From Bacteroidota bacterium (GTDB taxonomy: Bacteria > Bacteroidota > Bacteroidia > Flavobacteriales_F > PHOS-HE28), in NCBI GenBank assembly GCA_014584605.1, contig JACTMO010000066.1, positions 42,923-106,922 on the forward strand: a stretch of 64,000 bases of DNA, given 5' to 3'. The notes beneath the pieces are model-generated. The model was given only the letters and a program-made list of their open reading frames with translations. It had not been told where the DNA came from and did not search any database. Made by a program: the position numbers and the translations under genes. Shown here piece by piece: positions 4,094 through 63,588 of the stretch (position 1 is the first letter of the stretch; every line of letters begins with the position of its first letter).

Positions 4094-5746
4094 TCAATCC
4101 TTGATGAACCGTACGGTATGGGCTGAGGACGACGTTTGGATCCGGGCCGTGTAGGTGCCCGTGGGCAGGCTGCTGGTATCGATCGTGGTACTCCTGCCGA
4201 AACGGCCGGCCATACTTCCGAGGGTGTTCAACACCTCGATGCCGATGAGTTGCTCATTTGCAGGTATTTCGAAGGTGATACGCCCGTTGGTCGGGTTCGG
4301 CCAGGCGCGGACCGATCCGAGGGTGTCCCGTTCATGTACCCCCACATCGTTGTACAGCTTGCCGTTGCGGTAGATGCGCGCACCGTACAGGTTGCCGTCC
4401 GGGCTTTCCCAGAAGCTCACCACGCCGCCGTTGCCATCGGGCAGTTCCGTTCGCAATTCATAGAACGGGCCGTTCACCGTGGCGAACGATACGGCTTCCT
4501 CCCAGGCAAGGGTGCCATCGGGCCGCACACGCATGGCGCAATACATATGCGGGCCGCTCATGTCCATGATCGCGATCACGGCGCCGCTATCGCTGGGTAC
4601 CAGGCGGCTGGTGGGAATGTAGACGCTCTCGATGATGACGGGCAGGCCCGTGGCGGACCATTGTGGCGCACCGGTGGCGAGGTCGTGCCGCTGCACGTAG
4701 AGTCCGCTGCTGTCCGTACGGTCGTCAAACCAACTGGTGAACAGGCTGCCGTCGTGCACCATGGCGCTGAGCGCACCCTGGCCGGATGCGGCTTCGCAAA
4801 CAGGAACAACGGCCGGGGACCAGAGCGAGGACCCCGTGGTGTCGATGCGGTTCATCCGCAGATCACCGTAGTATTCCCATACGCTTGTCAACGCACCTTC
4901 GTCGTCCTTCGCGGTGGTGAACCCATACGCGAGACCATTGGCGTCGGCGACATCCAGATACGCGGGCCATACCGCGATGCCGAGGCTGTCGAAGCGCTGG
5001 GCTTTCAGGCACGTACCTGCTCCATTGGCGCAACGGATGTTGAACACGATCCCGCCCGCACCATCCGGATCGACGCTGTACGGGCCGATGTAGTTGGCCC
5101 CCACCGGTTGTCCAGGCAATGGGAAGTCCGTGGTGCCGTCCATGTGCAAGCGCTGCATCCGGCAACCGTATCCACCGCCGCTACAGCCTTCGCAATACGC
5201 GACCAGGAACGCGCAGTCGCCGCTGGCCACCAGTTGCATGCTGCGATAGTCCAACCCGACAAGCAAGGTGGAAGGCCCGGCCCACATGGCGCTCCCATCG
5301 GTGTTGAACCGCATGGCCCACACGGTATCCGCCGCATTGACACTGGCACCGGAAAAGAAGGACACGAGCACCGAGCCATCGGGCAGGAGCAACGCGGCCG
5401 TCTGGTTCACGCTGCGTCCGGGCTGGTCCCAGAGCAGTTCGCCGTTCGCCGCCCACAGCGCATTGCCCTCGCTGTCGAAATGCTGACCGTACAGTTGTGC
5501 GCGTGCGGCATCGTTGCGCAGGTCGCTCCAGAACGCGAAGTAGCCGCTGTCGGCATCGGAGATCGCGGTCAGGTGCCGCTGGGAGTTGGCGGCATTGCAA
5601 ACCACCATGGGAGCCGCGGGGTCAGTGCTCCATTGCGCCTGTGCGCGGTAGGCTGTGACCAGCAACAGCATGAGGGCGAGCGCAGTGACCAGGCAGCCCC
5701 AGATGGCCGCTTGGTATAGCCGTTCTGTGATCTTGTTGCGGTCCAT
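4094..5746 (-). CDS. T9SS-secreted repeat (beta-propeller-like) protein with a Por-secretion C-terminal domain (type A)
   Basis: N-terminal signal (…LVTALALMLLLVTAYRAQA), internal repeats of the form DGS..W / DG.G, and a C-terminus ...LPTGTYTARIQTSSSAHTVRFIKD typical of the Por_Secre_tail. Confidence 0.7.
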   Translation of the reverse strand: MDRNKITERLYQAAIWGCLVTALALMLLLVTAYRAQAQWSTDPAAPMVVCNAANSQRHLTAISDADSGYFAFWSDLRNDAARAQLYGQHFDSEGNALWAANGELLWDQPGRSVNQTAALLLPDGSVLVSFFSGASVNAADTVWAMRFNTDGSAMWAGPSTLLVGLDYRSMQLVASGDCAFLVAYCEGCSGGGYGCRMQRLHMDGTTDFPLPGQPVGANYIGPYSVDPDGAGGIVFNIRCANGAGTCLKAQRFDSLGIAVWPAYLDVADANGLAYGFTTAKDDEGALTSVWEYYGDLRMNRIDTTGSSLWSPAVVPVCEAASGQGALSAMVHDGSLFTSWFDDRTDSSGLYVQRHDLATGAPQWSATGLPVIIESVYIPTSRLVPSDSGAVIAIMDMSGPHMYCAMRVRPDGTLAWEEAVSFATVNGPFYELRTELPDGNGGVVSFWESPDGNLYGARIYRNGKLYNDVGVHERDTLGSVRAWPNPTNGRITFEIPANEQLIGIEVLNTLGSMAGRFGRSTTIDTSSLPTGTYTARIQTSSSAHTVRFIKD

Positions 5747-50713: not shown

Positions 50714-51496
50714 TCAACGGTACACGATCTTGTGCACGTCGATGCTGCCGTTGCGCGTGATCTTCAAGTAGTAGATGCCGTTGCTGGTGTTGCGCAGGTC
50801 CATCTCCTTGCGGTAGGTGCCCTCGAAACCGCGCAACTGCTCGGTGAAGACGCTCTGACCCAAGGTGTTCACCACCTCCACCTGGAGGTCCGACGGCGTG
50901 GCTACCAGGAAGGAGAACGTGAACTGACCGTCGTTGGGGTTGGGCAGGATGGTCACCGCCCCGTCCAGCTCGCTGGCGTTGATCGCTTTCTGGTAGATGG
51001 CCCCGGTCCGGTCAATGCCGCCGAGGGACAGATAGTAGTCCGCGTTGTTCAGCAGTTCACCCGTCCAGGCATCGTTCACCAGCTCCACGGTGGCATGGCC
51101 GGTGAAAGGGATGGTCATCACCGTGTACTCCCGGCCGGCCTCCCAGGTGGTGCCCGTGTTGCGGATGGACTCGAAACCGAAGCCCGCATACACCTGGTAG
51201 CTGTACGGACCGCTCTCATGCACCCCGCCCGAAGGGGCGATGGGGATGTAGGTGCGCGGTCCCTCGGGCTGCGCCGCATCACCCAGCTGCACCTTGGAGC
51301 TGCGGTCCCACCGGAGGGTGAAGACCACCGAACTGAAGATGCCGTCGAAATCGGCCGTGGGCCGGACGCGGACCTCCAGCTGGCCGTTGTTGGCGAAGAG
51401 GCCGATGTCCACCGGGCTCTGGGCCTGGGTCATGGCGGCGGCGCCCAGCATCAAGGCCAGGCCAGCGGAACGGAGCGTAGTCGTGCTCATGCGCAT
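50714..51496 (-). CDS. Small secreted protein with a Por-secretion (type A) C-terminal domain
   Basis: Signal peptide MRMSTTTLRSAGLALMLGAAAMTQAQS; C-terminus …NGIYYLKITRNGSIDVHKIVYR. Confidence 0.7.
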   Translation of the reverse strand: MRMSTTTLRSAGLALMLGAAAMTQAQSPVDIGLFANNGQLEVRVRPTADFDGIFSSVVFTLRWDRSSKVQLGDAAQPEGPRTYIPIAPSGGVHESGPYSYQVYAGFGFESIRNTGTTWEAGREYTVMTIPFTGHATVELVNDAWTGELLNNADYYLSLGGIDRTGAIYQKAINASELDGAVTILPNPNDGQFTFSFLVATPSDLQVEVVNTLGQSVFTEQLRGFEGTYRKEMDLRNTSNGIYYLKITRNGSIDVHKIVYR

Positions 51497-51802: not shown

Positions 51803-52501
51803 TCAGGGAGTGAACTTGTACCCCACCCCGCGCACGCTGTGGAAGTGCACGGGGTTGCGCCCGTCGGGCTCGAACAGCTTGCGGAAGGCCACGATGAAGT
51901 TGTCGATGGTGCGCGTGGTGGGGAACACGTCGTAGCCCCAGACCTTGTGGAGGATCTCCTCGCGGGAGACCACCTCTCCGGCGTGCTCGATCAGCAGGCG
52001 CAGCAGCATCACCTCGCGCTGCGAAAGGGCCCGGGAACCGCCCACACCATGTGCCTCGTAGGCCACCAGGTCCACCTCGTTGGGACCGAAGCGGTAGCGG
52101 TCCGGCACGGCGACAGGCCCCCGCTCCTGCGGGCGCGCCACCAGCTTGGCGAGCCGCAGCATCAATTCCTCCAGGTCGAAGGGCTTGCCCAGGTGGTCGT
52201 CGCCCGTGCGCAGGCCGCGCACCCGGTCGGCCACCGCCGTGCGGGCCGTAAGAAAGAGCACCGGGGTGCGGTCCCCTTCCAGGCGGACCTTCTCACACAC
52301 GGCAAAGCCGTCCATGCCGGGCAGCATCACGTCCATCACCGCCGCATCGAAGCGGGCCCCGCGCAGGCGCTCCAACGCCTCGGGGCCCGTGGTCGCCGTG
52401 GTCACGTGGTAACCCTCCAGTTCCAGGTTCAGGCGCAGCGTCTGGCGCAGGCTCTCCTCGTCCTCCACCAGCAACACGCGGGGCTTGCCATCCGGATGCA
52501 T
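51803..52501 (-). CDS. OmpR/PhoB-family response regulator (REC plus winged helix)
   Basis: …PRVLLVEDEESL…AVMDVMLPGMDGF… receiver domain; C-terminal …VHFHSVRGVGYKF wing. Start taken at MHPDGKPRVLLV; an ATG at 52546 is the alternative. Confidence 0.85.
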   Translation of the reverse strand: MHPDGKPRVLLVEDEESLRQTLRLNLELEGYHVTTATTGPEALERLRGARFDAAVMDVMLPGMDGFAVCEKVRLEGDRTPVLFLTARTAVADRVRGLRTGDDHLGKPFDLEELMLRLAKLVARPQERGPVAVPDRYRFGPNEVDLVAYEAHGVGGSRALSQREVMLLRLLIEHAGEVVSREEILHKVWGYDVFPTTRTIDNFIVAFRKLFEPDGRNPVHFHSVRGVGYKFTP

Positions 52502-52535
52502 GAGGGACAAAGATCGGCACGGGTACCTTTGGCCC

Positions 52536-52973
52536 ATGCGATTCACCGCGGCTCATGCCGAAACCGCCGACAGCTTCCGGGCCGGCACCCTGAGCGAACA
52601 CCTCGACATCCGATTCTCGGCCGACGCACAAGGACGTCTCACCGCCAGCATGCCGGTGGACGAGCGCACCGTTCAACCCATGGGCCAGCTGCACGGCGGC
52701 GCCACGGTGGCCCTGGCCGAAACGCTCGGCAGCGTGGCCTCGGCCCTGTTGGTGCTGCCCGAAGGTCGGCAGGTGGTGGGTGTGGAAGTGAACGCCAACC
52801 ACCTGAAGGCCGTGCGCGGCGGTCGTGTGACCGCCACGGCCGAGCCCCTGCACATCGGCCGCACCACCCATGTGTGGGATGTGCGGGTGCGCAATGCGGC
52901 CGACGAGCTGTGCGCCGTGTGCCGCCTCACCAATGTCGTGCTGCTGGGGCCCGTGGCCCCCAACCCCGCATGA
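52536..52973 (+). CDS. PaaI/YbgC-type hotdog thioesterase, probable 1,4-dihydroxy-2-naphthoyl-CoA thioesterase of the men operon
   Basis: …QPMGQLHGGATVALAETLGS… hotdog-fold signature. Its stop overlaps the menF ATG (ATGA), so co-transcription with men genes is likely. The function is inferred from context. Confidence 0.7.
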   Translation: MRFTAAHAETADSFRAGTLSEHLDIRFSADAQGRLTASMPVDERTVQPMGQLHGGATVALAETLGSVASALLVLPEGRQVVGVEVNANHLKAVRGGRVTATAEPLHIGRTTHVWDVRVRNAADELCAVCRLTNVVLLGPVAPNPA

Positions 52974-54097
52974 GCACCGCCAGCCCTCTGCACCAGGCCC
53001 TGAGCCTCTGCCTGGAGCGGCGGCTCACCTTCGCCGCGTTCCGCGTACCGGGCGGGCCGGTGACGCTCTGGGCGCAGCGCAACCCGGACCTGGAACCCGT
53101 GGATGCCGCCTTCCTGGGGCGCCTCAACGAAGTGTTCCTGGTGGCCCCCTTCGACCTCGATACCCGCCGCACCTGTTTCGTGCGCAGCGACGTGGAGCTC
53201 ACCTTCGGCGAGCTGCCCCTCTCGCTGGACGCCCTGCACGGTTGCACCGGCGGCCCGGTGCGCGAGCGCACGCCCGCACCCGATGCCGACCGCGTCGGCT
53301 TCGAGGACCTGGTGCGCAGGGCCAAGGCCGCCATCGCCGCCGGGACCCTGGAGAAAGTGGTGGCCTCGCGCACCCTGACCATGCCCCTGGACCGGGCCAT
53401 GCTCGCGACCCTGTTCGAGGACGGGCTGCAGCGCATGCCCCAGGCCCTGCTGGCCCTGGTGCATACCCCCGCGCACGGCACCTGGCTGGGAGCCTCCCCG
53501 GAACGCCTGCTGGAGGCTGAGGACGACCGGGTGCGCCTGGATGCCCTCGCCGGCACCCGCCCCCGCTCCGATGCGCCGCCCGGCCCGGAGGGCTGGGGGG
53601 CCAAGGAACGCCATGAGCAGGCCCTCGTTGCGCGCGAGGTGGTGGGCCGCCTCATCGAGCTGGGCCTGCCGCAGATCGCCCTGCGCGGTCCGCGGACGGT
53701 GGAAGCCGGTGGCGTGTGCCACCTGCGCACCGAGGTGGAGGCCGAACTTGGCCCGTGCTGCCTGGAGGACGTGCTGGTGGCCGTGCACCCCACACCGGCC
53801 GTGGGCGGCACCCCCCGGCAGGCGGCCGCCCGCTTCATCGCCGCGAACGACGGACCCGGGCGTGGCCTGTACACCGGCTTCTGGGGGCCGTGGAACGCCG
53901 ATGGCCGCACGGAGATCTTCGTCAACATCCGCTGCCTGGAGGCCCTGGGCGGGCACGTCGTCCTGCACGCCGGTGCGGGCATCACCGCCGCCTCCGAACC
54001 GGAGGCCGAATGGCGTGAGACGGAGGACAAGCTGGCCGCCTGGACCGCCGCCATTCGGTCGATGCACGCGAGCCGGGTATCTTCACCCGCCCGATGA
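52970..54097 (+). CDS. menF: Isochorismate synthase (menaquinone-specific)
   Basis: Chorismate-binding C-terminal domain (…HPTPAVGGTP…LYTGFWGPW…IRCLEALGG…). First gene of the menD-menB cluster. Confidence 0.85.
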   Translation: MSTASPLHQALSLCLERRLTFAAFRVPGGPVTLWAQRNPDLEPVDAAFLGRLNEVFLVAPFDLDTRRTCFVRSDVELTFGELPLSLDALHGCTGGPVRERTPAPDADRVGFEDLVRRAKAAIAAGTLEKVVASRTLTMPLDRAMLATLFEDGLQRMPQALLALVHTPAHGTWLGASPERLLEAEDDRVRLDALAGTRPRSDAPPGPEGWGAKERHEQALVAREVVGRLIELGLPQIALRGPRTVEAGGVCHLRTEVEAELGPCCLEDVLVAVHPTPAVGGTPRQAAARFIAANDGPGRGLYTGFWGPWNADGRTEIFVNIRCLEALGGHVVLHAGAGITAASEPEAEWRETEDKLAAWTAAIRSMHASRVSSPAR

Positions 54098-55797
54098 CCT
54101 CCGACCACTTCGTCGCCGCCGAGCTTGCCCGGCTCTGCGCCGCCAAGGGGGTCCGCCACGCCGTTGTCAGCCCGGGTTCGCGCAGCGCACCCCTGGTGAT
54201 CGCCTTCCTCGGCCGGTCCGACATCTCCTGCGCACGCGTGATCGACGAGCGCAGCGCGGCCTTCTTCGCCCTGGGCATGGCGCAGCAGCTGCACGCACCC
54301 GTAGCCCTGATCTGCACCAGCGGCAGCGCCGTGCTCAACTACGGCCCGGCCATCGCCGAGGCCTTCTACCAGCGCGTACCCCTGCTGGTGATCACCGCCG
54401 ACCGCCCTGCGGAGTGGGTGGACCAGGGCGAGGGCCAGGCCATCCGCCAGCAGGACGTGCTCGCCCTGCACATGAAACGCAGCATCCAGCTGCCGAGGAA
54501 CCCGCATGACGAGCTCGCCCGCTGGCAGTGCGGCCGCCTGATCAACGAGGCCATCGACGCCACGCTGCTGCCCGTACCGGGCCCCGTGCACGTGAACGTG
54601 CCCTTCGCCGAACCGCTGTACGGCCGGGCGGAACACCGGGAAGCGGACCAGGGTCGCCTGATCGCCCCGGTGATGACCGAGCCCTTCATCCTGCCCGACC
54701 ATGCCCGCTGGCTCATCGGCCAGGTGAGCGCATGCCGCAAGGTGATGGTGCTCGCCGGGCAGGGCCTGTGGAGCGAAGGGCTGAAGGCCCAACTGAAACG
54801 CCTGGCCACCCTGCCGCAGGTCACCGTGCATACCGAGGCCACCAGCAACCTGGACGACAGCACCTTCATCACCTGCATCGACCGGGCGATCGAGGGCGTG
54901 AACGCCAGCAACGAGCACGACCTGAGGCCCGACCTGCTGATCACCTTCGGGGGAGCGGTGGTGAGCAAGCGCATCAAGACGCTGCTGCGGAAATGGCGGC
55001 CGGAACAGCACTGGAACGTGGACGCCGGCCAGCGGCACCACGACACCTACCAGAGCCTCACGCACGACATCGCCGTGAACCCGGAGATCTTCTTCGCGCA
55101 GATCATGAACGGCGCCCAGGCCAGCGAGAGCATCTACGGCGAGGCCTGGCGCATGGTGGACGAACGGATGCGCGGTACGCACGCCAGGCTGCTGGTCAGA
55201 ACGCCGTTCTGCGACCTCAGCGTGTTCAACACCCTGAACGACCGGATCCCGGGCGACAGCGACGTGCACCTGGCCAACAGCACACCGGCGCGTTACGCGC
55301 AGCTCTTCGACCGGGTGCGGGGCATCCGCTGGTTCAGCAACCGCGGCACCAGCGGCATCGACGGCTGCACCAGCACCGCCGTGGGCGCCGCCCACGCCAC
55401 GAAGATGCTCACCACCCTCATCACAGGTGACATCGCTTTCTGCTACGACAGCAACGCGCTCTGGAACGAGCACCTGTCGCCCCTGCTGAAGATCATCGTG
55501 ATCGACAACGGCGGCGGCAACATCTTCCGCTACATCGACGGGCCGGACAGGCACCCCGAACTGCTTCCCTGGTTCGAGGCACCGCATGCGCGGAGCATCG
55601 AGAAGCTGGTGCGGAGCTTCGACCTGCCGTACTTCCACGCCAACGACCAGCCCTCCCTGGAGCAGGGCCTCGACCAGCTGTACAGGACGCACGACCGACC
55701 CGCCGTGCTCCACATCACCACCGATGCGCAGCTCTCCCCGAAGGTGCTGCGCGACCATTTCAAGCAACTCCGCGAGGCCGGGGCAACCCCGGCATGA
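54094..55797 (+). CDS. menD: SEPHCHC synthase (2-succinyl-5-enolpyruvyl-6-hydroxy-3-cyclohexene-1-carboxylate synthase), ThDP-dependent
   Basis: …[17 protein letters not shown]… parallels E. coli MenD GVRHICIAPGSRSTPL; three-domain ThDP architecture, 567 aa. Confidence 0.9.
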
Positions 55798-55801
55798 CAC
55801 G

Positions 55802-56623
<822 letters not shown>

Positions 56624-56707
56624 AGGGCATTTTCAACGCAGGGACGCGGAGTTTCGCGGAGGATGTCCTCCCTCGCCAACTTCAGTGCCCCGCCCTAACT
56701 TTACGGC

Positions 56708-56935
56708 ATGCGTGAGGAACTGATCGAGATCAAGCCGGACCTGGCCAACGGCAAGCCCGTGGTGAAGGGCACGCGCATCACTGTACAGTCGGTGCTTGAA
56801 CTGCTGGCGGCGGGCGATGATGTGGAGGAGGTGCTGAAGGCGTATCCGTCCATCACGCGTGAGCATGTGCTGGCCTGTGTGGAAATGGCCGCGCGCATCA
56901 TGGGGAACCGTTTCTCCGCCCTGCCGTTGGCATGA
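56708..56935 (+). CDS. DUF433-family small protein (antitoxin-like component)
   Basis: …KPDLANGKPVVKGTRITVQSVLELLAAGDDVEEVLKAYPSITREHVLACVEMAA… matches the DUF433 consensus (GkPvi.GTRI.V..vl..l..G.s.eeil..YP.l…). Confidence 0.7.
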   Translation: MREELIEIKPDLANGKPVVKGTRITVQSVLELLAAGDDVEEVLKAYPSITREHVLACVEMAARIMGNRFSALPLA

Positions 56936-57198
56936 AGGGGCTTCTGATCGACGAGAACCTGCCGTTGCCCACGGTGCTTCCGACCACGCTGCCCATCGTT
57001 CATTCGCGCCAATCGGGTGCGCAGCCCAGCGACTCGTTCCTTTGGCAGCATGCCATAGCGCACGACCTTACGATCGTCACGAAGGACGCCGATCTCTCCG
57101 AACGCATCCAGTTGAGCGGACCGCCACCTCGCATCGTTCACCTGCGAGTAGGCAATATGCGGCGCACCGACTTCATCCAGTGGCTGTACAAGCAATGA
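56932..57198 (+). CDS. DUF5615-family PIN-like protein (toxin-like component)
   Basis: MKGLLIDENLPLP…AHDLTIVTKDADLSE… matches DUF5615 (M.k.l.DENl…). It overlaps the DUF433 stop (ATGA), and its own stop overlaps the menA ATG. Confidence 0.7.
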   Translation: MKGLLIDENLPLPTVLPTTLPIVHSRQSGAQPSDSFLWQHAIAHDLTIVTKDADLSERIQLSGPPPRIVHLRVGNMRRTDFIQWLYKQ

Positions 57199-58190
57199 CC
57201 TGCGATCGAGGCGGCCTTGCCTCAACACAAGCTGGTGAACGTGTATCACGACCATTTGGAACTGATCGCCTGACGGTGAAACAATGGCTCCACGCCTTTA
57301 GGCTGCGCACCCTGCCGCTTGCGGTAAGCAGCATCATCGTGGGGAGTGCGTTGGCCTGTATGGTGGATGGTGAGGTCATGGGCAACCCCGGCTTCAGACG
57401 CAGCGTTCTCGTTCTTGCCCTGCTCACCGCCGTACTCCTTCAGATCCTAAGCAATCTCGCCAACGACCTCGGGGATCACCAGCACGGCACGGACAACAAC
57501 GAGCGCGTGGGACCTCAACGTGCAGTGCAGAGCGGTGCGATCACACCAGCACAGATGAAGCTCGCGATGGTCATCTGCGGCGCTCTTGCATTCCTTAGTG
57601 GTGCTGTCCTGATCACGATCGCCCTCGGTTTCACCGTGCGCACCTTGCTCTTCCTCCTGCTCGGGATCGCGGCCATCGCGGCCGCCGTGCGTTACACCTT
57701 CGGCAGGAACCCCTACGGCTACGCAGGCCTGGGCGATCTCAGTGTGTTCCTCTTCTTCGGGCTCGTGGGCGTTTGCGGGACCTTCTATCTGCACACCCGG
57801 ACGTTCCTGCCGCATGTCCTTGTGCCGGCAACGGCGTTCGGGCTGCTCAGTGCCGGTGTGCTCAACGTGAACAACATGCGCGACATCGACAACGATGCGG
57901 CCAGCGGCAAACGCACCCTGGTGGTGCGCATGGGCAGTGCCAACGCCAGGGTCTATCACAGCTTCCTGGTGACGGGCGGCCTGGTGCTGCTGGTGCTCTT
58001 CACCCTGTTCCTCCAAGTGTCGCCCTGGCAATGGGCCTTCCTGCTCGCACTGCCGATGTTCGCTGTGCACCTCAACCGCGTGTGGACCGCCCCCACGCCT
58101 CGCGCGCTCGACCCGCAACTGAAGGTGCTGGCCCTGGGCACCTTCCTCACCGCACTGCTCTTCTCGCTGGGCCTTATCCTTGCGGGATGA
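57197..58190 (+). CDS. menA: 1,4-dihydroxy-2-naphthoate polyprenyltransferase
   Basis: …VKQWLHAFRLRTLPLAVSSIIVGSALA… parallels E. coli MenA TQAWLESLRPKTLPLAFAAIIVG; UbiA-family Asp-rich motif NLANDLGDHQHGTDNNER; 8-9 TM helices. The start is either the ATG at 57197 or the in-frame GTG at 57276. Confidence 0.85.
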
Positions 58191-59239
58191 TCGCCGCGCG
58201 CTGGGTCGAGCACACCCTGCACCCCGTCTTCCCGCTGGGCACCTCCAAGGGCACGATCAACGCCCGTACGGTCTGGTACCTGCTGGCCTGGGACACCGAG
58301 CGCCCCGAGGTGTGCGGCATCGGTGAGGCCGCGCTCTTCCCCGGCCACAGCAAGGAATACCCGGCCGATGTACGCACCAAGCTGCTGGAACTGTGCCAGC
58401 ATACCGGGGACTGGGCCCGGCGCCTGGGCGACGACCTGGTGGACGTGCCCAGCGTGCGCTTCGCCGTGGAGCAGTGCCTGAAGGACCTCGAGGCCGGCGG
58501 CACCAAGACGCTCTTCCCCTCGGCGTTCACACTGGGGCGGCAGCACATCCCGATCAACGGCCTGGTCTGGATGGGCGACAAGGCCACCATGAAACGGCGG
58601 ATCCGCGAGCAGCTCGAGGGCGGCTTCACCACCGTGAAGATGAAGATCGGCGCCCTCGGCATGGACGACGAGCTGGAGCTGCTGAAGGCCGTGCGTGCCG
58701 AGTACGGACCGGAGCACATCACCCTGCGCGTCGATGCCAACGGTGCCTACAACGCACAACAGGCCCCGGAGGTGCTGAAGCGCCTGGCCGACCTCCAGGT
58801 GCACAGCATCGAGCAGCCGCTGCCGCCGGGGCAGTTCGAGCTGATGGCCGAGCTCTGTTCGGACACGCCCGTACCCATCGCGCTGGACGAGGACCTCATA
58901 GGCCACAACACGCGCGACACGAAGGTGGACCTGCTGAACAACCTGCGCCCGCAGTTCATCGTGATCAAGCCGAGCCTGGTGGGCGGCTGGGCGGCCACCC
59001 GGGAGTGGATCGACCTGGCCAGGGCGCGCGGCATCGGTTGGTGGATCACCTCGGCCCTGGAGAGCAGCATCGGCCTGAACGCCGTCGCCCAGTTCACCGC
59101 CACGCTGGACGTGGACATCGCCCAGGGCCTCGGGACGGGAAAGGTCTATGCCAACAACTTCCCCTCGCCCCTGTTCGCCGAGCGCGGTTCGCTCCGCTAC
59201 CGGCCCGAGGCCGAGTGGGACCTGAGCGCACTGCCGTGA
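58185..59239 (+). CDS. menC: o-Succinylbenzoate synthase (enolase superfamily)
   Basis: …KMKIGALGMDDELELLKAVRAEYGPEHITLRVDANGAY… (KxK and metal ligands) and …IEQPLPP…DEDL… second/third metal ligands. Confidence 0.8.
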
Positions 59240-60300
59240 ACCCCTTCACCCGGCTCACGGTGGACGGTGTCACCCTGGAAGGCGATGCCATCGTCAACTG
59301 GGCCGATGCCCTGGAGGCTCATTCCACCGGCGCTCCCGAAGAGGCCGCCATGCTGCGGACAACGGTGCGTGAGCTGCTGCGCGGCGAAGGGCTGTCGGCC
59401 ACCACCAGCGGGACCACCGGGCCGCCCAAGCGCATCACCATCCCCGTGGAGGACCTGGTGGCCAGCGCCCGGCTCACGGGACGCACGTTCGGCCTCCGCC
59501 CCGGCGACCGCGTGCTGCATTGCCTTCCGGGCAGCTTCGTGGCCGGCAAGCTCATGCTCGTGCGTGCCTTCGTGCTGGGGCTGGACCTGCATGTGATCTC
59601 CCCGCGCGGCAGCGTGCTGGCCAAGCTCGGCGCGGCCGAGCGGTTCCGATTCGCGGCCATGGTGCCGTTGCAGCTGGCGCGGGCCCTGGACGAGGACCGG
59701 GAGCGCGTGGAGACGCAGTTCCACACGGTGCTGCTGGGCGGCGGTCCGGTGAGCGAGGCGCTGGGGCAGCGGCTGGCGGGCCTGCGCACGGAGGTGTTCC
59801 TGGGCTACGGCAGCACCGAGACCGTGACGCATGTGGCGTTGCGCCGACTCGGCGGGTCCCGGACCACGGACGCGTTCGCCGCACTGGGGGAGTGCCATTT
59901 CGCGCGCGACCCGCGCGGCTGCCTCGTGGTCCACACGCCGCACCTCAGCACCTTCCAGCACCGCACCAACGACCTGGTGCAGCTGGTGGACGACACGCAC
60001 TTCCGCTGGCTGGGGCGGTACGACAACGTGATCCTCAGCGGCGGGCGCAAGGTGCATCCCGAGCAGCTCGAGGCGCGCACCGCCGCGCTGATCCCAGAGC
60101 CGCACTATTTCAGCGGCATGCCGGATGTGCAGCTGGGCCAGGCGGTGATGCTGACCATCGAGACGGAACGGCCGCCGCAGGACGTGGTGCCCGAGGTGAT
60201 GGCGCGGCTGCTGCACGTGCTGCATCCGTACGAGATGCCGCGCCACATACGCACCCTGCCCCGCCTGGAGCGCACGAACAGCGGCAAGATCAGGCGCTGA
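59236..60300 (+). CDS. menE: o-Succinylbenzoate-CoA ligase (short ANL-family enzyme)
   Basis: …ATTSGTTGPPKRITI… (AMP motif), …FLGYGSTET…; C-terminal …PRLERTNSGKIRR. The apparent start is a GTG overlapping the menC stop; the first in-frame ATG lies 35 codons downstream. Confidence 0.75.
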   Translation: MNPFTRLTVDGVTLEGDAIVNWADALEAHSTGAPEEAAMLRTTVRELLRGEGLSATTSGTTGPPKRITIPVEDLVASARLTGRTFGLRPGDRVLHCLPGSFVAGKLMLVRAFVLGLDLHVISPRGSVLAKLGAAERFRFAAMVPLQLARALDEDRERVETQFHTVLLGGGPVSEALGQRLAGLRTEVFLGYGSTETVTHVALRRLGGSRTTDAFAALGECHFARDPRGCLVVHTPHLSTFQHRTNDLVQLVDDTHFRWLGRYDNVILSGGRKVHPEQLEARTAALIPEPHYFSGMPDVQLGQAVMLTIETERPPQDVVPEVMARLLHVLHPYEMPRHIRTLPRLERTNSGKIRR

Positions 60301-61367
60301 GGTCTTCAGCGGCGCCCCCTTCCATCGGGCGGGCCGCGGTGTAGGTGCGCCACCTGGCCAGCACCGCCTCCATGTCGGGCGGCAGCGGGCTCTCGAACCG
60401 CATGCGTGCACCGGTGGCGGGGTGATCGAACTCCAGCGTGCGTGCGTGCAGGGCCTGGCGCGGCAGCAGTGCGAAGCAGTTCTCCACGAACTGCCTGTAC
60501 TTGGTGAAGGTGGTGCCTTTCAGCACCCGGTCGCCGCCATAGGCCGCGTCGTTGAAAAGCGGGTGCCCGGCCCATTGCATGTGCACCCGGATCTGGTGGG
60601 TGCGCCCGGTCTCCAGCTTGCAATCCACCAGCGTGACGTAACGGAACCGCTCCACCACCCGCCAGCGCGTCAAGGCCGGCTTGCCCTGCTCGCCCCCGGG
60701 GAACACGTATTGCACCGTCCGGTCCTTGGGGCTGCGGCCGATGTGGGCCTCCAGCACGCCTTCGTCCTCCGCGAAGTCGCCCCACACCAGGGCCTGGTAG
60801 CGGCGGTCGCTGGTGCGCTCGAAGAACTGGCGGGCCAGGTGGGTGAGGGCCTCCTCGTTCTTGCCGATGACCATCACACCGCTGGTGTCCTTGTCCAGCC
60901 GGTGCACCAGTCCGGGCCGTGGGACCTCGGCCCCGGGCACCGCCGGCAGCCGGCCGAAGTGGAACAGCAGCGCGTTCACCAGGGTGCCCGTCCAGTTGCC
61001 GTGGCCCGGATGCACCACCAGGCCGGCGGGTTTGTCGATCACCACCACGTGATCGTCCTCGAACAGGACCCGCAGCGGGATGTCCTCCGGCTTCAGCTCC
61101 ACCTCCCGCTGGGGGTAGGGCAGCACGATGCTGATGACGTCGCCGGGCTTCACCTTCTGGCTGGGCTTGGCCGTGCGGTCGTTCACCCGCACATTGCCGG
61201 CCCGCGCGGCCACCTGGATCCGGTTGCGCGAGGTGTTCGCCAGGCGGTCGAAGAGGAACTTGTCCAGCCGCAGCAGCGTCTGGCCCGGGTCGCACACGAT
61301 GCGGTGGTGCTCGTAGAGCTCCTGCTCCTCGCCGCCTTCGAGCTCCCCGTCCCCGGCCCCCTGGCTC
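60290..61367 (-). CDS. RluA-family 23S rRNA pseudouridine synthase with an N-terminal S4 domain (RluD/RluC-like)
   Basis: S4 domain (…LRLDKFLFDRLANTSRNRIQVAARAGNVRVND…); catalytic …GLVHRLDKDTSGVMVIGKN…; convergent with menE, overlapping it by 11 bp. Confidence 0.85.
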
Positions 61368-63588
61368 ATCGTTGCAGCATCAACCGTGCATGCCCCAGGG
61401 CCGTCCCCTGCGCATCCAACAGCCGCACCACGTAGGACCCGGGCGCCGCGTCGGCCAGGTCGATGGGCGCATCGTTGCGGTACGGCGTGCGCAGCACCAG
61501 GCGACCGGTGGCGTCCCACAGCTCCACCTGGCCCGCGGCCGCACCCTCCAGGCGCACCCACAGCAGGTTCGAGGCCGGGTTGGGCCACAGGCCAAGCGTG
61601 GGCCGTGGCAGGCCGTCGGTGCCGGTGAACGGGTCGGTAACCGCCACCAGCACCGGCCGGAGCATGAGCGAACCGTGGTGCGAGGTGTTGGCGAAGGTCC
61701 CCGTGGTGTTGAAGAAGATGCGGGACTGGCTGTCCGTGTTGCGGTCGAAGCCCACGTTCATGAACGTGGCCGTGGTCTGCACGAAGCCCACGTAAAAGGT
61801 GGCAGGCACCAGGATGGTGGAGTCCAGCGGATACTCCACGAACTTGTTGAGCCCGTGCGGCCGGTACTCCGGGTCGCTGAAGCTGAAGTTCTGATGGATG
61901 ATGGTCTCGGGGCTCAACGAGCTCCACACCGTGAGCAGGAAGCTGGCCTCCTCCGGGTTCTCCGGGAAGAAGATGGGATCGAAGTAGATGCGCACGGCCC
62001 GCAGCGAGTCGGGCTGCTGCATGTCGAAACGCACGGCCACCTTGCCCCCTGGCGCATTGATGAGGCCGTAGCCCGCCTCGGCGCTGCCGTCGTCCAGGGC
62101 GTAGTAATTGCTCAGTTCCTGCACGAACCGCATGGTATCGTTGTACCGGTTGATGTCCGGGGTGACGTCGATGGCGAAGGTGTTGCGCCAGAACGCCGCC
62201 CCCGTGCTGAGCGACGGATCGTACACGAACGGGGCCACCGTGTGGGTGCTGGTGAAGGTGCTGTTCGCGTTGTTGATGATGTTGCTGCCCGTTCCGAAGG
62301 TCGCCACGGGCGCAGCACCGTCGAGGCCCGAGCTGGCCTCCCAGGTGATGAAGCGGTCCTGGTCCGCCAGGTTCTTCTGCAACAGGTCCACCGAGGTGGC
62401 CATGAACGCCGTGGGGGTGTTGCTGAAGTGCGTGAAGGGCACCGAGGTCCAGGTGTTCAGCAGCGTGTTCCCCGGATACACCCACGAGACGTCCACCAGC
62501 AGCGTGTCGTCGTGGGCACGCTGCCGGGCCAGCCGCACATAGTCGATGTGCCAGTGGTCCAGCGCACCGCTTTGCGTGCCGTAGTTCAGGAAGCGGAAGC
62601 GGAAGTCGGGCTTCAGAAAGCGGAAGTCGGTGATGGGCAGCATCACCTGCTCGAAGGGTGCGAGCGCGGAATATGGCGTGCTCCACCGGTGGATCCACTC
62701 GTCTTCGTCCGGCGCGTAGAACTCCAGCACCAGGCTGTCCTGCGTCTGCACCTCGGTGTCGCCGCTCCGTCCCTGGGGCTGATAGAAGAAGCTCAGGTAG
62801 ATGGAATCGCCCGGCGGGTACGCCATGTTCACGGGCACCGAGGTGAGGTGGTCGTTGATGCCGTAGGCCGTGGGCGAGTTGGTGACGTAGGGCAGCCCCG
62901 TGCGGTCCACGCCGTCGAAGGTGGCCACGCCGATGGTGGGCGGATCGATGGGATAGGTGCCGTTGATGTGGACGTCGTCATCGGCCCACAGGACCAGGGG
63001 CACGTCCACACCGTTCTGGACGTAGGTGCGCGGGTCGGGCGGAACGGTGTACACCTCCAGCGAATCCTGCAGCAGGTCGGCGGCGGGCACGGCGAGCGTG
63101 TCGATGAAGGGGTCGGTGAGCGTGTCGTAGATGGTGTAAGGCGGCCACGCCGACTGCAGGATGGAGGTGGCCGGGTAGGTGCTCAGGTCGAACAGCTCGA
63201 TGGTGATGAAAGGGTTCGCCTCGCGCCAGGTGCTGTCCACGCCCACCGTGTCGGTGTGGAAATGGAAGGTGGTGTCCGAATAGAAGGCCATGCCCGGGGT
63301 GGAGACACCCCCCACGGCGATGCGGTACACCACGTCGGTGAGCGACACCCCCGGGTCGTCCGCCGCCGCGTTGAGGTGGCGCGTGCGGTCGATGGAGAGA
63401 TCATCCATCAACGGCAGCTCCTGCACGGCGTTCTGATAGATGAAGAAGGTGTTCGCGGCGGAACGCACCAGGGGCCGTTCGTTCTCCGGGCGGGGCTGTC
63501 CGTTCAGGGGGAAGAGCCCCTCCTGCTGCGCCAGCACGGAGGTGGCGAGCAGGGTGGCGGCGAGCAGGGCGAGGTCACGGTTCCACAT
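61366..63588 (-). CDS. Large secreted protein with a Por-secretion (type A) C-terminal domain
   Basis: Signal peptide MWNRDLALLAATLLATSVLAQQ; C-terminus …LGLWPNPASNLLWVRLEGAAAGQVELWDATGRLV…GSYVVRLLDAQGTALGHARLMLQR. Its stop overlaps the rluD-like ATG (ATGA). Confidence 0.7.
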   Translation of the reverse strand: MWNRDLALLAATLLATSVLAQQEGLFPLNGQPRPENERPLVRSAANTFFIYQNAVQELPLMDDLSIDRTRHLNAAADDPGVSLTDVVYRIAVGGVSTPGMAFYSDTTFHFHTDTVGVDSTWREANPFITIELFDLSTYPATSILQSAWPPYTIYDTLTDPFIDTLAVPAADLLQDSLEVYTVPPDPRTYVQNGVDVPLVLWADDDVHINGTYPIDPPTIGVATFDGVDRTGLPYVTNSPTAYGINDHLTSVPVNMAYPPGDSIYLSFFYQPQGRSGDTEVQTQDSLVLEFYAPDEDEWIHRWSTPYSALAPFEQVMLPITDFRFLKPDFRFRFLNYGTQSGALDHWHIDYVRLARQRAHDDTLLVDVSWVYPGNTLLNTWTSVPFTHFSNTPTAFMATSVDLLQKNLADQDRFITWEASSGLDGAAPVATFGTGSNIINNANSTFTSTHTVAPFVYDPSLSTGAAFWRNTFAIDVTPDINRYNDTMRFVQELSNYYALDDGSAEAGYGLINAPGGKVAVRFDMQQPDSLRAVRIYFDPIFFPENPEEASFLLTVWSSLSPETIIHQNFSFSDPEYRPHGLNKFVEYPLDSTILVPATFYVGFVQTTATFMNVGFDRNTDSQSRIFFNTTGTFANTSHHGSLMLRPVLVAVTDPFTGTDGLPRPTLGLWPNPASNLLWVRLEGAAAGQVELWDATGRLVLRTPYRNDAPIDLADAAPGSYVVRLLDAQGTALGHARLMLQR

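Follow-up and report, generated by a model that had tools for sequence, protein, structure and literature searches.

The menaquinone (vitamin K2) operon of an uncultured Flavobacteriales bacterium carries a small gene pair directly 5' of menA. The best overall explanation of this arrangement, to which we assign a probability of about 65%, is that an old DUF433-DUF5615 module, inherited mainly vertically, has become wired into the men operon, and that in the genome analysed here its toxin is most likely inactive. In this genome, a remnant in decay is a more probable reading of the pair than a functioning addiction module. What sets the locus apart is that, within one clade, the pair has long been wired in a conserved manner to the start of menA, and that the toxin has decayed repeatedly beside an intact antitoxin. 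All positions refer to the stretch of 64,000 nucleotides that was analysed, hereafter called the window.

The gene pair and its truncated toxin

Two co-oriented ORFs encoding 75 and 88 residues lie between menB and menA and overlap by an ATGA at 56932–56935 (Table 1). A preliminary description of this DNA had taken them for a DUF433 gene and a DUF5615 gene, and both assignments hold, since both proteins give strong Pfam matches. The first matches PF04255 with an E-value of 2.9e-21 (75.5 bits against a gathering cut-off of 23.6), residues 6–59 of the protein aligning with profile positions 1–54 of 56, and the second matches PF18480 with an E-value of 1.7e-15 (57.3 bits against 23.8). The flanking menB and menA genes give equivalog-level NCBIfam matches, indicating that they are true men genes. 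The overlapping stops and starts noted elsewhere in the operon are also present, as four ATGA junctions (menI/menF, menF/menD, menA/menC and menC/menE), and the gap between menB and the pair is short as described, although its length is 84 nt and not 85 bp.

Table 1. Features of the men operon and of the gene pair preceding menA (positions in the window).
Feature	Position	Strand	Basis
Sigma-A -7-box consensus TACCTTTG, 4 nt before the menI ATG at 52536; predicted leaderless men promoter	52524–52531	+	PMC9723704 consensus
menI-like thioesterase, first gene of the men operon	52536–52973	+	Profile searches
menF	52970–54097	+	Profile searches
menD	54094–55797	+	Profile searches
menB (1,4-dihydroxy-2-naphthoyl-CoA synthase)	55802–56623	+	NCBIfam NF005637, 475 bits, cut-off 380
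Segment of the menB-DUF433 spacer, ttcaacgcagggacgcggagtttcgcggag; left edge of the insertion	56632–56661	+	Homology with the spacer in relatives that have no pair
-7-box-like element TAACTTTA, 4 nt before the DUF433 ATG; predicted internal leaderless promoter	56696–56703	+	Conservation; PMC9723704
DUF433 (COG2442) gene, 75 aa, intact; predicted antitoxin and DNA-binding regulator	56708–56935	+	Pfam PF04255
DUF5615 (COG4634-type, Mut7-C-like PIN) toxin gene, 88 of 113 codons	56932–57198	+	Pfam PF18480
Premature stop TGA, ancestral TGG (W89*)	57196–57198	+	DNA alignment with L016, L012 and L064
Untranslated toxin remnant, 24 intact in-frame codons (PAIEAALPQHKLVNVYHDHLELIA) and original stop at 57271–57273	57199–57273	+	
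menA (DHNA polyprenyltransferase), GTG start most likely	57276–58190	+	NCBIfam NF004750, 372 bits, cut-off 346
menC, distal sub-operon gene after the pair	58187–59239	+	Pfam/NCBIfam
menE, distal sub-operon gene after the pair	59236–60300	+	Pfam/NCBIfam

At the head of the operon, the gene for an OmpR-type response regulator (51803–52501, minus strand) diverges from menI at a distance of about 34 bp, and this interval holds the box TACCTTTG, for which leaderless transcription is predicted. On either side of the men region, a protein is encoded that has a C-terminal sorting domain for type IX secretion, Por_Secre_tail (50714–51496 and 61366–63588, both on the minus strand), consistent with a Bacteroidota host.

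A toxin-antitoxin function was predicted in 2009 for pairs of a PIN gene and a COG2442 (DUF433) gene (PMC2701414), and COG4634 has been grouped with Mut7-C, a reduced PIN-like group without a solved structure, as a potential toxin (PMC5499597). By sequence the present pair belongs to this predicted PIN-COG2442 class of type II toxin-antitoxin systems (PMC2701414; PMC5499597). Its genes are small, adjacent, co-oriented and overlapping, the antitoxin gene comes first, and, as in PIN-COG2442 modules, the two strictly co-occur in many genomic contexts. One pair of the class, VapBC10 of Synechocystis (ssr2962/slr1767), is a functional toxin-antitoxin system (PMC3834315); a literature search for an experimentally tested member of DUF5615/COG4634 found none. 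The gene order is that of VapBC10 and of VapBC45 of M. tuberculosis (Rv2018/Rv2019), with a small DUF433/COG2442 gene preceding a small PIN-like gene and overlapping it. Unlike in those two systems, the toxin of the window is of the DUF5615/COG4634 type, from the reduced Mut7-C-like PIN group, and is cut by a nonsense mutation, and the module is embedded in a biosynthetic operon with predicted translational coupling. No NCBIfam model matches either small protein, and the PADLOC defence-system models match neither of them nor P0001, a full-length toxin homolog. The DUF433 protein gives a weak direct match to PDB entry 2GA1 (E = 0.037). A PDB sequence search with the toxin profile returned no meaningful match, and structure-comparison searches neither confirmed nor contradicted a PIN fold for the toxin, giving it no specific support.

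The PF18480 match spans only profile positions 3–89 of 110, short of a full-length domain of about 110 aa, because a nonsense mutation, W89*, shortens the DUF5615 ORF. In DNA alignments the window reads CAA TGA CCT where L016, L012 and L064 read CAA TGG CC(C), a single-base change, and 30 of 31 toxin homologs found in a search among 5.8 billion proteins are 113–114 aa long. An intact, near-identical allele (P0034) differs at four positions within residues 1–88. An assembly error was considered as the source of the truncated allele and rejected: the identical 88-aa protein is recorded on nine contigs, the look-up returning contigs from eight sequencing runs, and the truncated form is thus a real allele of the organism. 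Compared with L016, the remnant codons after the stop show no nonsynonymous and three synonymous differences, and this undecayed tail indicates that the mutation is probably recent.

The stop takes away the C-terminal 25 residues, or 22% of the toxin. Its structural consequences were mapped on an AlphaFold2 model of P0001, which is 93% identical (pLDDT 90.4) and has a helix at residues 78–95 followed by strands at 101–104 and 109–112. The truncation cuts the helix, half of which is lost, and deletes both terminal beta-strands. Among the lost residues, W89, P90, E93, K100, L101, V104 and E110 all show a conservation of at least 90%, and two of them, E93 and E110, are conserved acidic residues. 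Given the loss of these helical and strand elements and of several near-invariant residues, the toxin of the window is most likely inactive or strongly attenuated. In a family alignment of 32 sequences the acidic residues D7, E8, D34, D52 and D54 are invariant, as are N9, R58, H70 and N75, and all of these are kept in the window protein; with every invariant acidic residue still within the 88 residues, some residual activity is possible. With a C as the next base, UGA is a leaky stop, and low-level read-through might still produce some full-length toxin. The window toxin also bears F55L beside D52/D54. A count of substitutions at conserved toxin positions gave no clear sign of relaxed selection in the window lineage (3 against a mean of 1.3, range 0–4, in the reference set).

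Distribution and age of the pair at the menB-menA junction

A scan for MenA with one genome per species returned 80 loci, of which about 58 belong to one clade of uncultured high-GC genomes labelled 'Flavobacteriales bacterium' (MenA 60–78% identical), and the remainder to Bacteroidales, Salibacter, Labilibaculum and similar organisms (about 50% identical). In these outgroups menB mostly lies next to menA, with a gap of 11–89 bp (11–38 bp in most), and the Salibacter and Labilibaculum loci have unrelated insertions of 2–4 kb between the two genes. In the majority of the clade, menA is preceded either by menB (−1 to 57 bp) or by menD (2–16 bp), in the latter case with menB elsewhere. The orthologous pair occurs in only three of the approximately 58 clade genomes, namely L016, which is the window's sister, L012 and L064, and near relatives of these three (L018, L029 and L048) are without it. 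The first 30–40 nt of the menB-DUF433 spacer in the window share homology with the spacer that separates menB from menA in relatives without the pair (L029, L034, L040 and L017), which places the pair between the old menB-menA spacer and the menA start. The order menB-pair-menA is, on these comparisons, derived, neither ancestral nor universal. The proposal that the pair was inserted between menB and menA is therefore upheld, given that menB adjoins menA in the outgroups and in most relatives, and examination of this adjacency in related genomes found most of them without the insert and not a universally conserved arrangement.

Operons in which menB is missing and menD abuts menA were seen in L019, L020, L032, L038, L039, L042, L043, L045, L048 and L050–L054; as menB is absent from these operons, it must lie elsewhere in the genome. 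In the short menB-menA spacer of L017, L029, L034, L040 and other relatives, a GCAGAG/GCGGAG motif is repeated, as in cgcagaggcacagaggacgcagag, and the window segment given in Table 1 preserves part of it. Searched for as a dispersed repeat or recombination site, GCRGAG-N4-GCRGAG has a single match in the window, below the chance expectation.

The pair is nevertheless not a peculiarity of one genome. The toxin-homolog loci and a metagenome scan together reveal about ten species-level lineages with the pair directly 5' of menA (the window, L016/L089/L103, L012, L064, L096/L104, L098, L100, L101/L102, L105/L109 and L107/L108), and the linkage has the same age as the split of these lineages. In every case the full-length toxin frame finishes at the start codon of menA, in the form TGATG, ATGA, TAATG or TGAcgGTG. 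The gene 5' of the pair is menB in most lineages and menD in L064, and in L101/L102 and L105 it is not a men gene (in L101 it encodes a TonB-dependent receptor). Because the upstream gene varies and menA is constant, the linkage is specifically to menA.

DUF433 lies directly 5' of DUF5615 in all 94 additional loci (L089–L182), many of them in unrelated contexts. None of the more distant copies (at most 61% identical, and chiefly from metagenomes of peat and soil) stands beside menA, and all have DUF433 directly 5'; the toxin copies P0013 and P0029 are likewise found in contexts outside men operons. This co-occurrence in varied, unrelated contexts, together with the patchy distribution within the clade, has the signature of a mobile two-gene module. 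In an unrelated genome (L095, 3780–7423), a 53%-identical pair lies two genes from, and on the opposite strand to, menaquinone genes of the futalosine pathway (PF02621 VitK2_biosynth; radical-SAM/CofH_C); this second case of proximity to quinone biosynthesis is probably a coincidence.

The junction between menB and menA is generally permissive to cargo. L027 contains, at 1465–2024, a DUF433/DUF5615 pair that is about 40% identical to that of the window and does not abut menA, and L011 contains, on the opposite strand (4233–4864, minus), a canonical PIN gene (PF01850, E = 7e-13) with a small DUF6364-like ORF. These are two further independent insertions of toxin-antitoxin type at the same junction. 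A conserved ORF for a secreted protein of about 155 aa (GSGTATLTCRSASGRT...FWAIPSTFKT...EPRPGKG...YRI), without a Pfam match, stands directly 5' of menA in L009, L046, L053, L055, L058 (5526–5999), L060, L061 and L063. Other cargo at the junction comprises an outer-membrane-barrel-like ORF of about 228 aa (L009, L059 and L065) and ORFs of 120–142 aa (L030, L036, L044 and L057). Several small ORFs at this junction encode secreted or membrane proteins that match no Pfam family.

The age of the association was assessed from synonymous divergence. Between the window and L016, dS is 0.20–0.26 for the pair and 0.26–0.61 for the flanking men genes; between the window and L064, the corresponding values are 0.84–2.1 and about 1.05. 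A tree built from the two concatenated genes and the tree of MenA are congruent (Mantel r = 0.43, p = 0.0013). Values of dN/dS across lineages are 0.03–0.28 for DUF433 and 0.10–0.20 for DUF5615, indicating purifying selection on the antitoxin and, in most lineages, on the toxin. Because the dS of the pair matches that of its flanks, the trees are congruent and both genes are under purifying selection, a single old insertion followed by vertical inheritance and many losses is favoured by these data; such vertical descent needs many clean deletions of the pair. The low GC3 of the pair (0.76–0.79 versus 0.90–0.95) was considered as a mark of recent foreign origin and is not decisive, as menA is also low at 0.80.

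Alternatively, the junction might be an insertion hotspot that the pair entered repeatedly by lateral transfer, and not the site of one old inherited insertion. Some lateral spread among relatives is possible, since the 55 junctions lacking the pair contain no remnants of it, the distribution is patchy with sister lineages devoid of the pair, and P0013/L092, a copy outside any men operon, nests within the menA-linked clade in the tree; the unrelated cargo at the same junction, including the pairs of L027 and L011, points in the same direction. As an account of the whole pattern, however, repeated entry is rather unlikely, in view of the parallel divergence of the pair and its flanks, the congruent trees and the identical, precise abutment to the menA start in all lineages; moreover, no recombinase, repeats or att-like sites were seen around the pair.

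Upstream signals and the start of menA

The sigma-A -7 box of flavobacteria is TAnnTTTG, positioned at −12 to −5 from the transcription start (PMC9723704). TAnnTTTG occurs at six sites in the window, counting both strands, all of them 4–55 nt upstream of start codons. The sole sequence conserved upstream of the pair among the lineages that carry it is TAACTTT[C/A], at −12 to −5 from the DUF433 ATG, and it also precedes copies outside men operons. The spacing of 4 nt is the same before menI (TACCTTTG-gccc-ATG) and before DUF433 (TAACTTTA-cggc-ATG). From the shared box, the spacing and the agreement with the consensus position, leaderless transcripts starting at 52536 and 56708 are predicted, and the earlier idea that the pair's own promoter might drive menA-menC-menE gains support from the conserved motif. 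The box at DUF433 ends in A or C, whereas the consensus has G, and no conserved -33 element was seen upstream of DUF433; the TAACTTT motif could instead be an AT-rich translation-initiation context.

A scan of 55500–58000 for sigma-70 promoters and intrinsic terminators returned nothing, the consensus used being unsuited to Bacteroidota promoters. An Rfam search of 56400–57500 at E-values up to 1 gave no matches, and the predicted folding of the menB-DUF433 spacer is not significant (z = −1.3). The only inverted repeat in this spacer is the 6-bp GGAGGA/TCCTCC, which is absent as a conserved feature in relatives, and no conserved operator-like repeat was found. As neither a terminator nor an Rfam family nor significant RNA structure separates menB from the pair, transcription is expected to proceed from menB through the pair.

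The start of menA had been placed at 57197, overlapping the stop of the PIN-like gene. The in-frame ATG is in fact at 57195, where it forms an ATGA (57195–57198) with the premature toxin stop, and the overlap is a by-product of W89* and not a native feature. The NCBIfam menA profiles first match at residues 27–36 of the protein started from this ATG, the MenA proteins of all 80 relatives align from MKQW/MKHW (M-K-Q/H-W-L), and in relatives with an intact toxin menA is called 0–2 nt after the toxin stop, a position equivalent to the GTG at 57276, which follows the original toxin stop by 2 nt. On account of the profile onset, the alignment of relatives and the start position beside intact toxins, the true start of menA is most likely this GTG and not the ATG. 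Gene callers disagree on the protein (331 aa in L001–L006, 304 aa in L007), and termination and reinitiation at the ATGA could yield a MenA with a 27-aa N-terminal extension (MTCDRGGLASTQAGERVSRPFGTDRLT), as some callers annotate. In annotations, the menA start should be placed at 57276 and the DUF5615 gene flagged as truncated.

The following mechanism is proposed. A module of the PIN-COG2442 class would have entered between the menB-menA spacer and the menA start codon in a high-GC Flavobacteriales ancestor, and would since then have been inherited mainly vertically and lost many times. Operon transcripts would read through the pair from menB, there being no terminator between them, and the TAACTTTA box would yield a leaderless transcript over DUF433, DUF5615, menA, menC and menE. 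Since the full-length toxin frame ends at, or no more than 2 nt from, the menA start in every lineage, translation of menA is proposed to be coupled to that of the toxin. The change of TGG to TGA in the window would have truncated the toxin at residue 88, leaving DUF433 intact beside a toxin pseudogene, with the inherited promoter and spacer still in front of menA. The sequence data establish what the genes are, the nonsense mutation, the distribution of the pair in relatives, its co-divergence, the purifying selection and the conservation of the motif; that the toxin is toxic and neutralised, that the box acts as a promoter, that translation is coupled and that the window toxin has lost its function is what we infer.

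Toxin decay, the antitoxin and persistence of the module

The toxin is damaged in other menA-linked lineages as well. L101/L102 carry an independent in-frame nonsense mutation, Y86*, three codons upstream of W89, together with changes at conserved sites, and the L105 toxin has an in-frame deletion of 4 aa. Conserved positions are struck repeatedly in the menA-linked clade, namely F55 (L, L, P, C), W89 (stop, R, R) and L46 (P, F, P), with the recurrent changes found in P0002, P0035, P0036 and L101. These changes may reflect repeated attenuation of the toxin, with sequencing error possible for those that come from short metagenome contigs. An intact DUF433 gene is present in each of the nine menA-linked lineages whose contig includes it, the L109 fragment beginning inside the toxin gene.

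One reading of this pattern is that DUF433 has been recruited as an activator or promoter donor for menA-menC-menE, the toxin being dispensable and the pair being kept for quinone regulation and not as a selfish element. A precedent exists in the DUF433 antitoxin VapB10, which activates its own promoter, an activation that the toxin counteracts (PMC3834315). The two broken toxins beside an antitoxin that is intact wherever its gene is on the contig, the DUF433 dN/dS of as little as 0.03, and the position of the pair at the head of the menA-menC-menE unit in L101/L102 and L105, with no men gene upstream, are all consistent with recruitment. It is distinctly improbable nonetheless, as most relatives do without the pair, both genes are gone where it is absent (no orphan DUF433 stands beside menA in the 55 loci lacking the pair), the toxin is itself under purifying selection in most lineages, and the upstream region has no conserved operator-like repeat.

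The embedded, active addiction module envisaged in the preliminary description, in which the 88-aa toxin works and is held by DUF433 while an autoregulated promoter couples menA-menC-menE to toxin-antitoxin dynamics or stabilises the operon, is very doubtful for this genome: the invariant acidic residues within residues 1–88, the intact and strongly conserved DUF433, the -7-like box before the pair and the undecayed tail codons (from a recent mutation or a tail still read at a low level) would fit it, but the stop removes near-invariant positions and two strands of the predicted sheet, full length is kept in nearly all homologs, the independent Y86* suggests recurrent toxin loss, and the window allele carries a substitution, F55L, next to D52/D54.

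Toxin-antitoxin genes near metabolic genes, and a men operon interrupted by another gene, are known elsewhere. In E. coli, mazEF is located downstream of relA. The men architecture of S. aureus reportedly rests on an oppositely oriented gene that acts through overlapping transcription. The vapBC10 genes of Synechocystis lie antisense to a nitrogen-metabolism operon (PMC4963859). Like mazEF and vapBC10, the present pair occupies a transcription unit or transcriptional space together with core metabolic genes and varies in presence among close relatives; unlike them, it lies inside the operon, upstream of an essential-pathway gene, its toxin stop is fused to the menA start in about ten diverged lineages, and it co-diverges with menA. 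A literature search for a toxin-antitoxin pair inside a men operon found no paper, the closest case being the noncontiguous S. aureus operon menE-menC-01914-ytkD, where the menaquinone genes are likewise interrupted by a non-men gene and quinone levels and fitness are influenced by the architecture (PMC11034616). In contrast to that operon, the interrupting genes in the window are co-oriented and of toxin-antitoxin type.

Within the favoured history of an old, mainly vertically inherited module, its persistence might be due to entrenchment through operon wiring and not to post-segregational killing, a suggestion that is offered tentatively and considered unlikely. A leaderless promoter, possibly activated by DUF433 as in the case of VapB10, and translational coupling would together make the pair part of menA-menC-menE expression. 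If this were true, the toxin would be free to decay, as has happened independently in two lineages, while DUF433 and the DNA before menA persist, and the locus would document how a selfish toxin-antitoxin module can turn into a regulatory component of an essential biosynthetic operon.

Chromosomal toxin-antitoxin modules are abundant, and the reason for their persistence is debated. Here one module has held one position, at the start of an essential-pathway gene, while about ten lineages diverged, and in these the toxin has been broken at least twice and the antitoxin, where observable, never. These lineages form a natural series for asking whether persistence stems from harm to an essential neighbour upon deletion or from a regulatory job of the antitoxin, and the significance of the locus would rise if DUF433 controls menA-menC-menE. 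The locus also warns against reading the pair as an active addiction system, and members of this DUF5615 subfamily are reasonable candidates for the first experimental test of a COG4634-type toxin.
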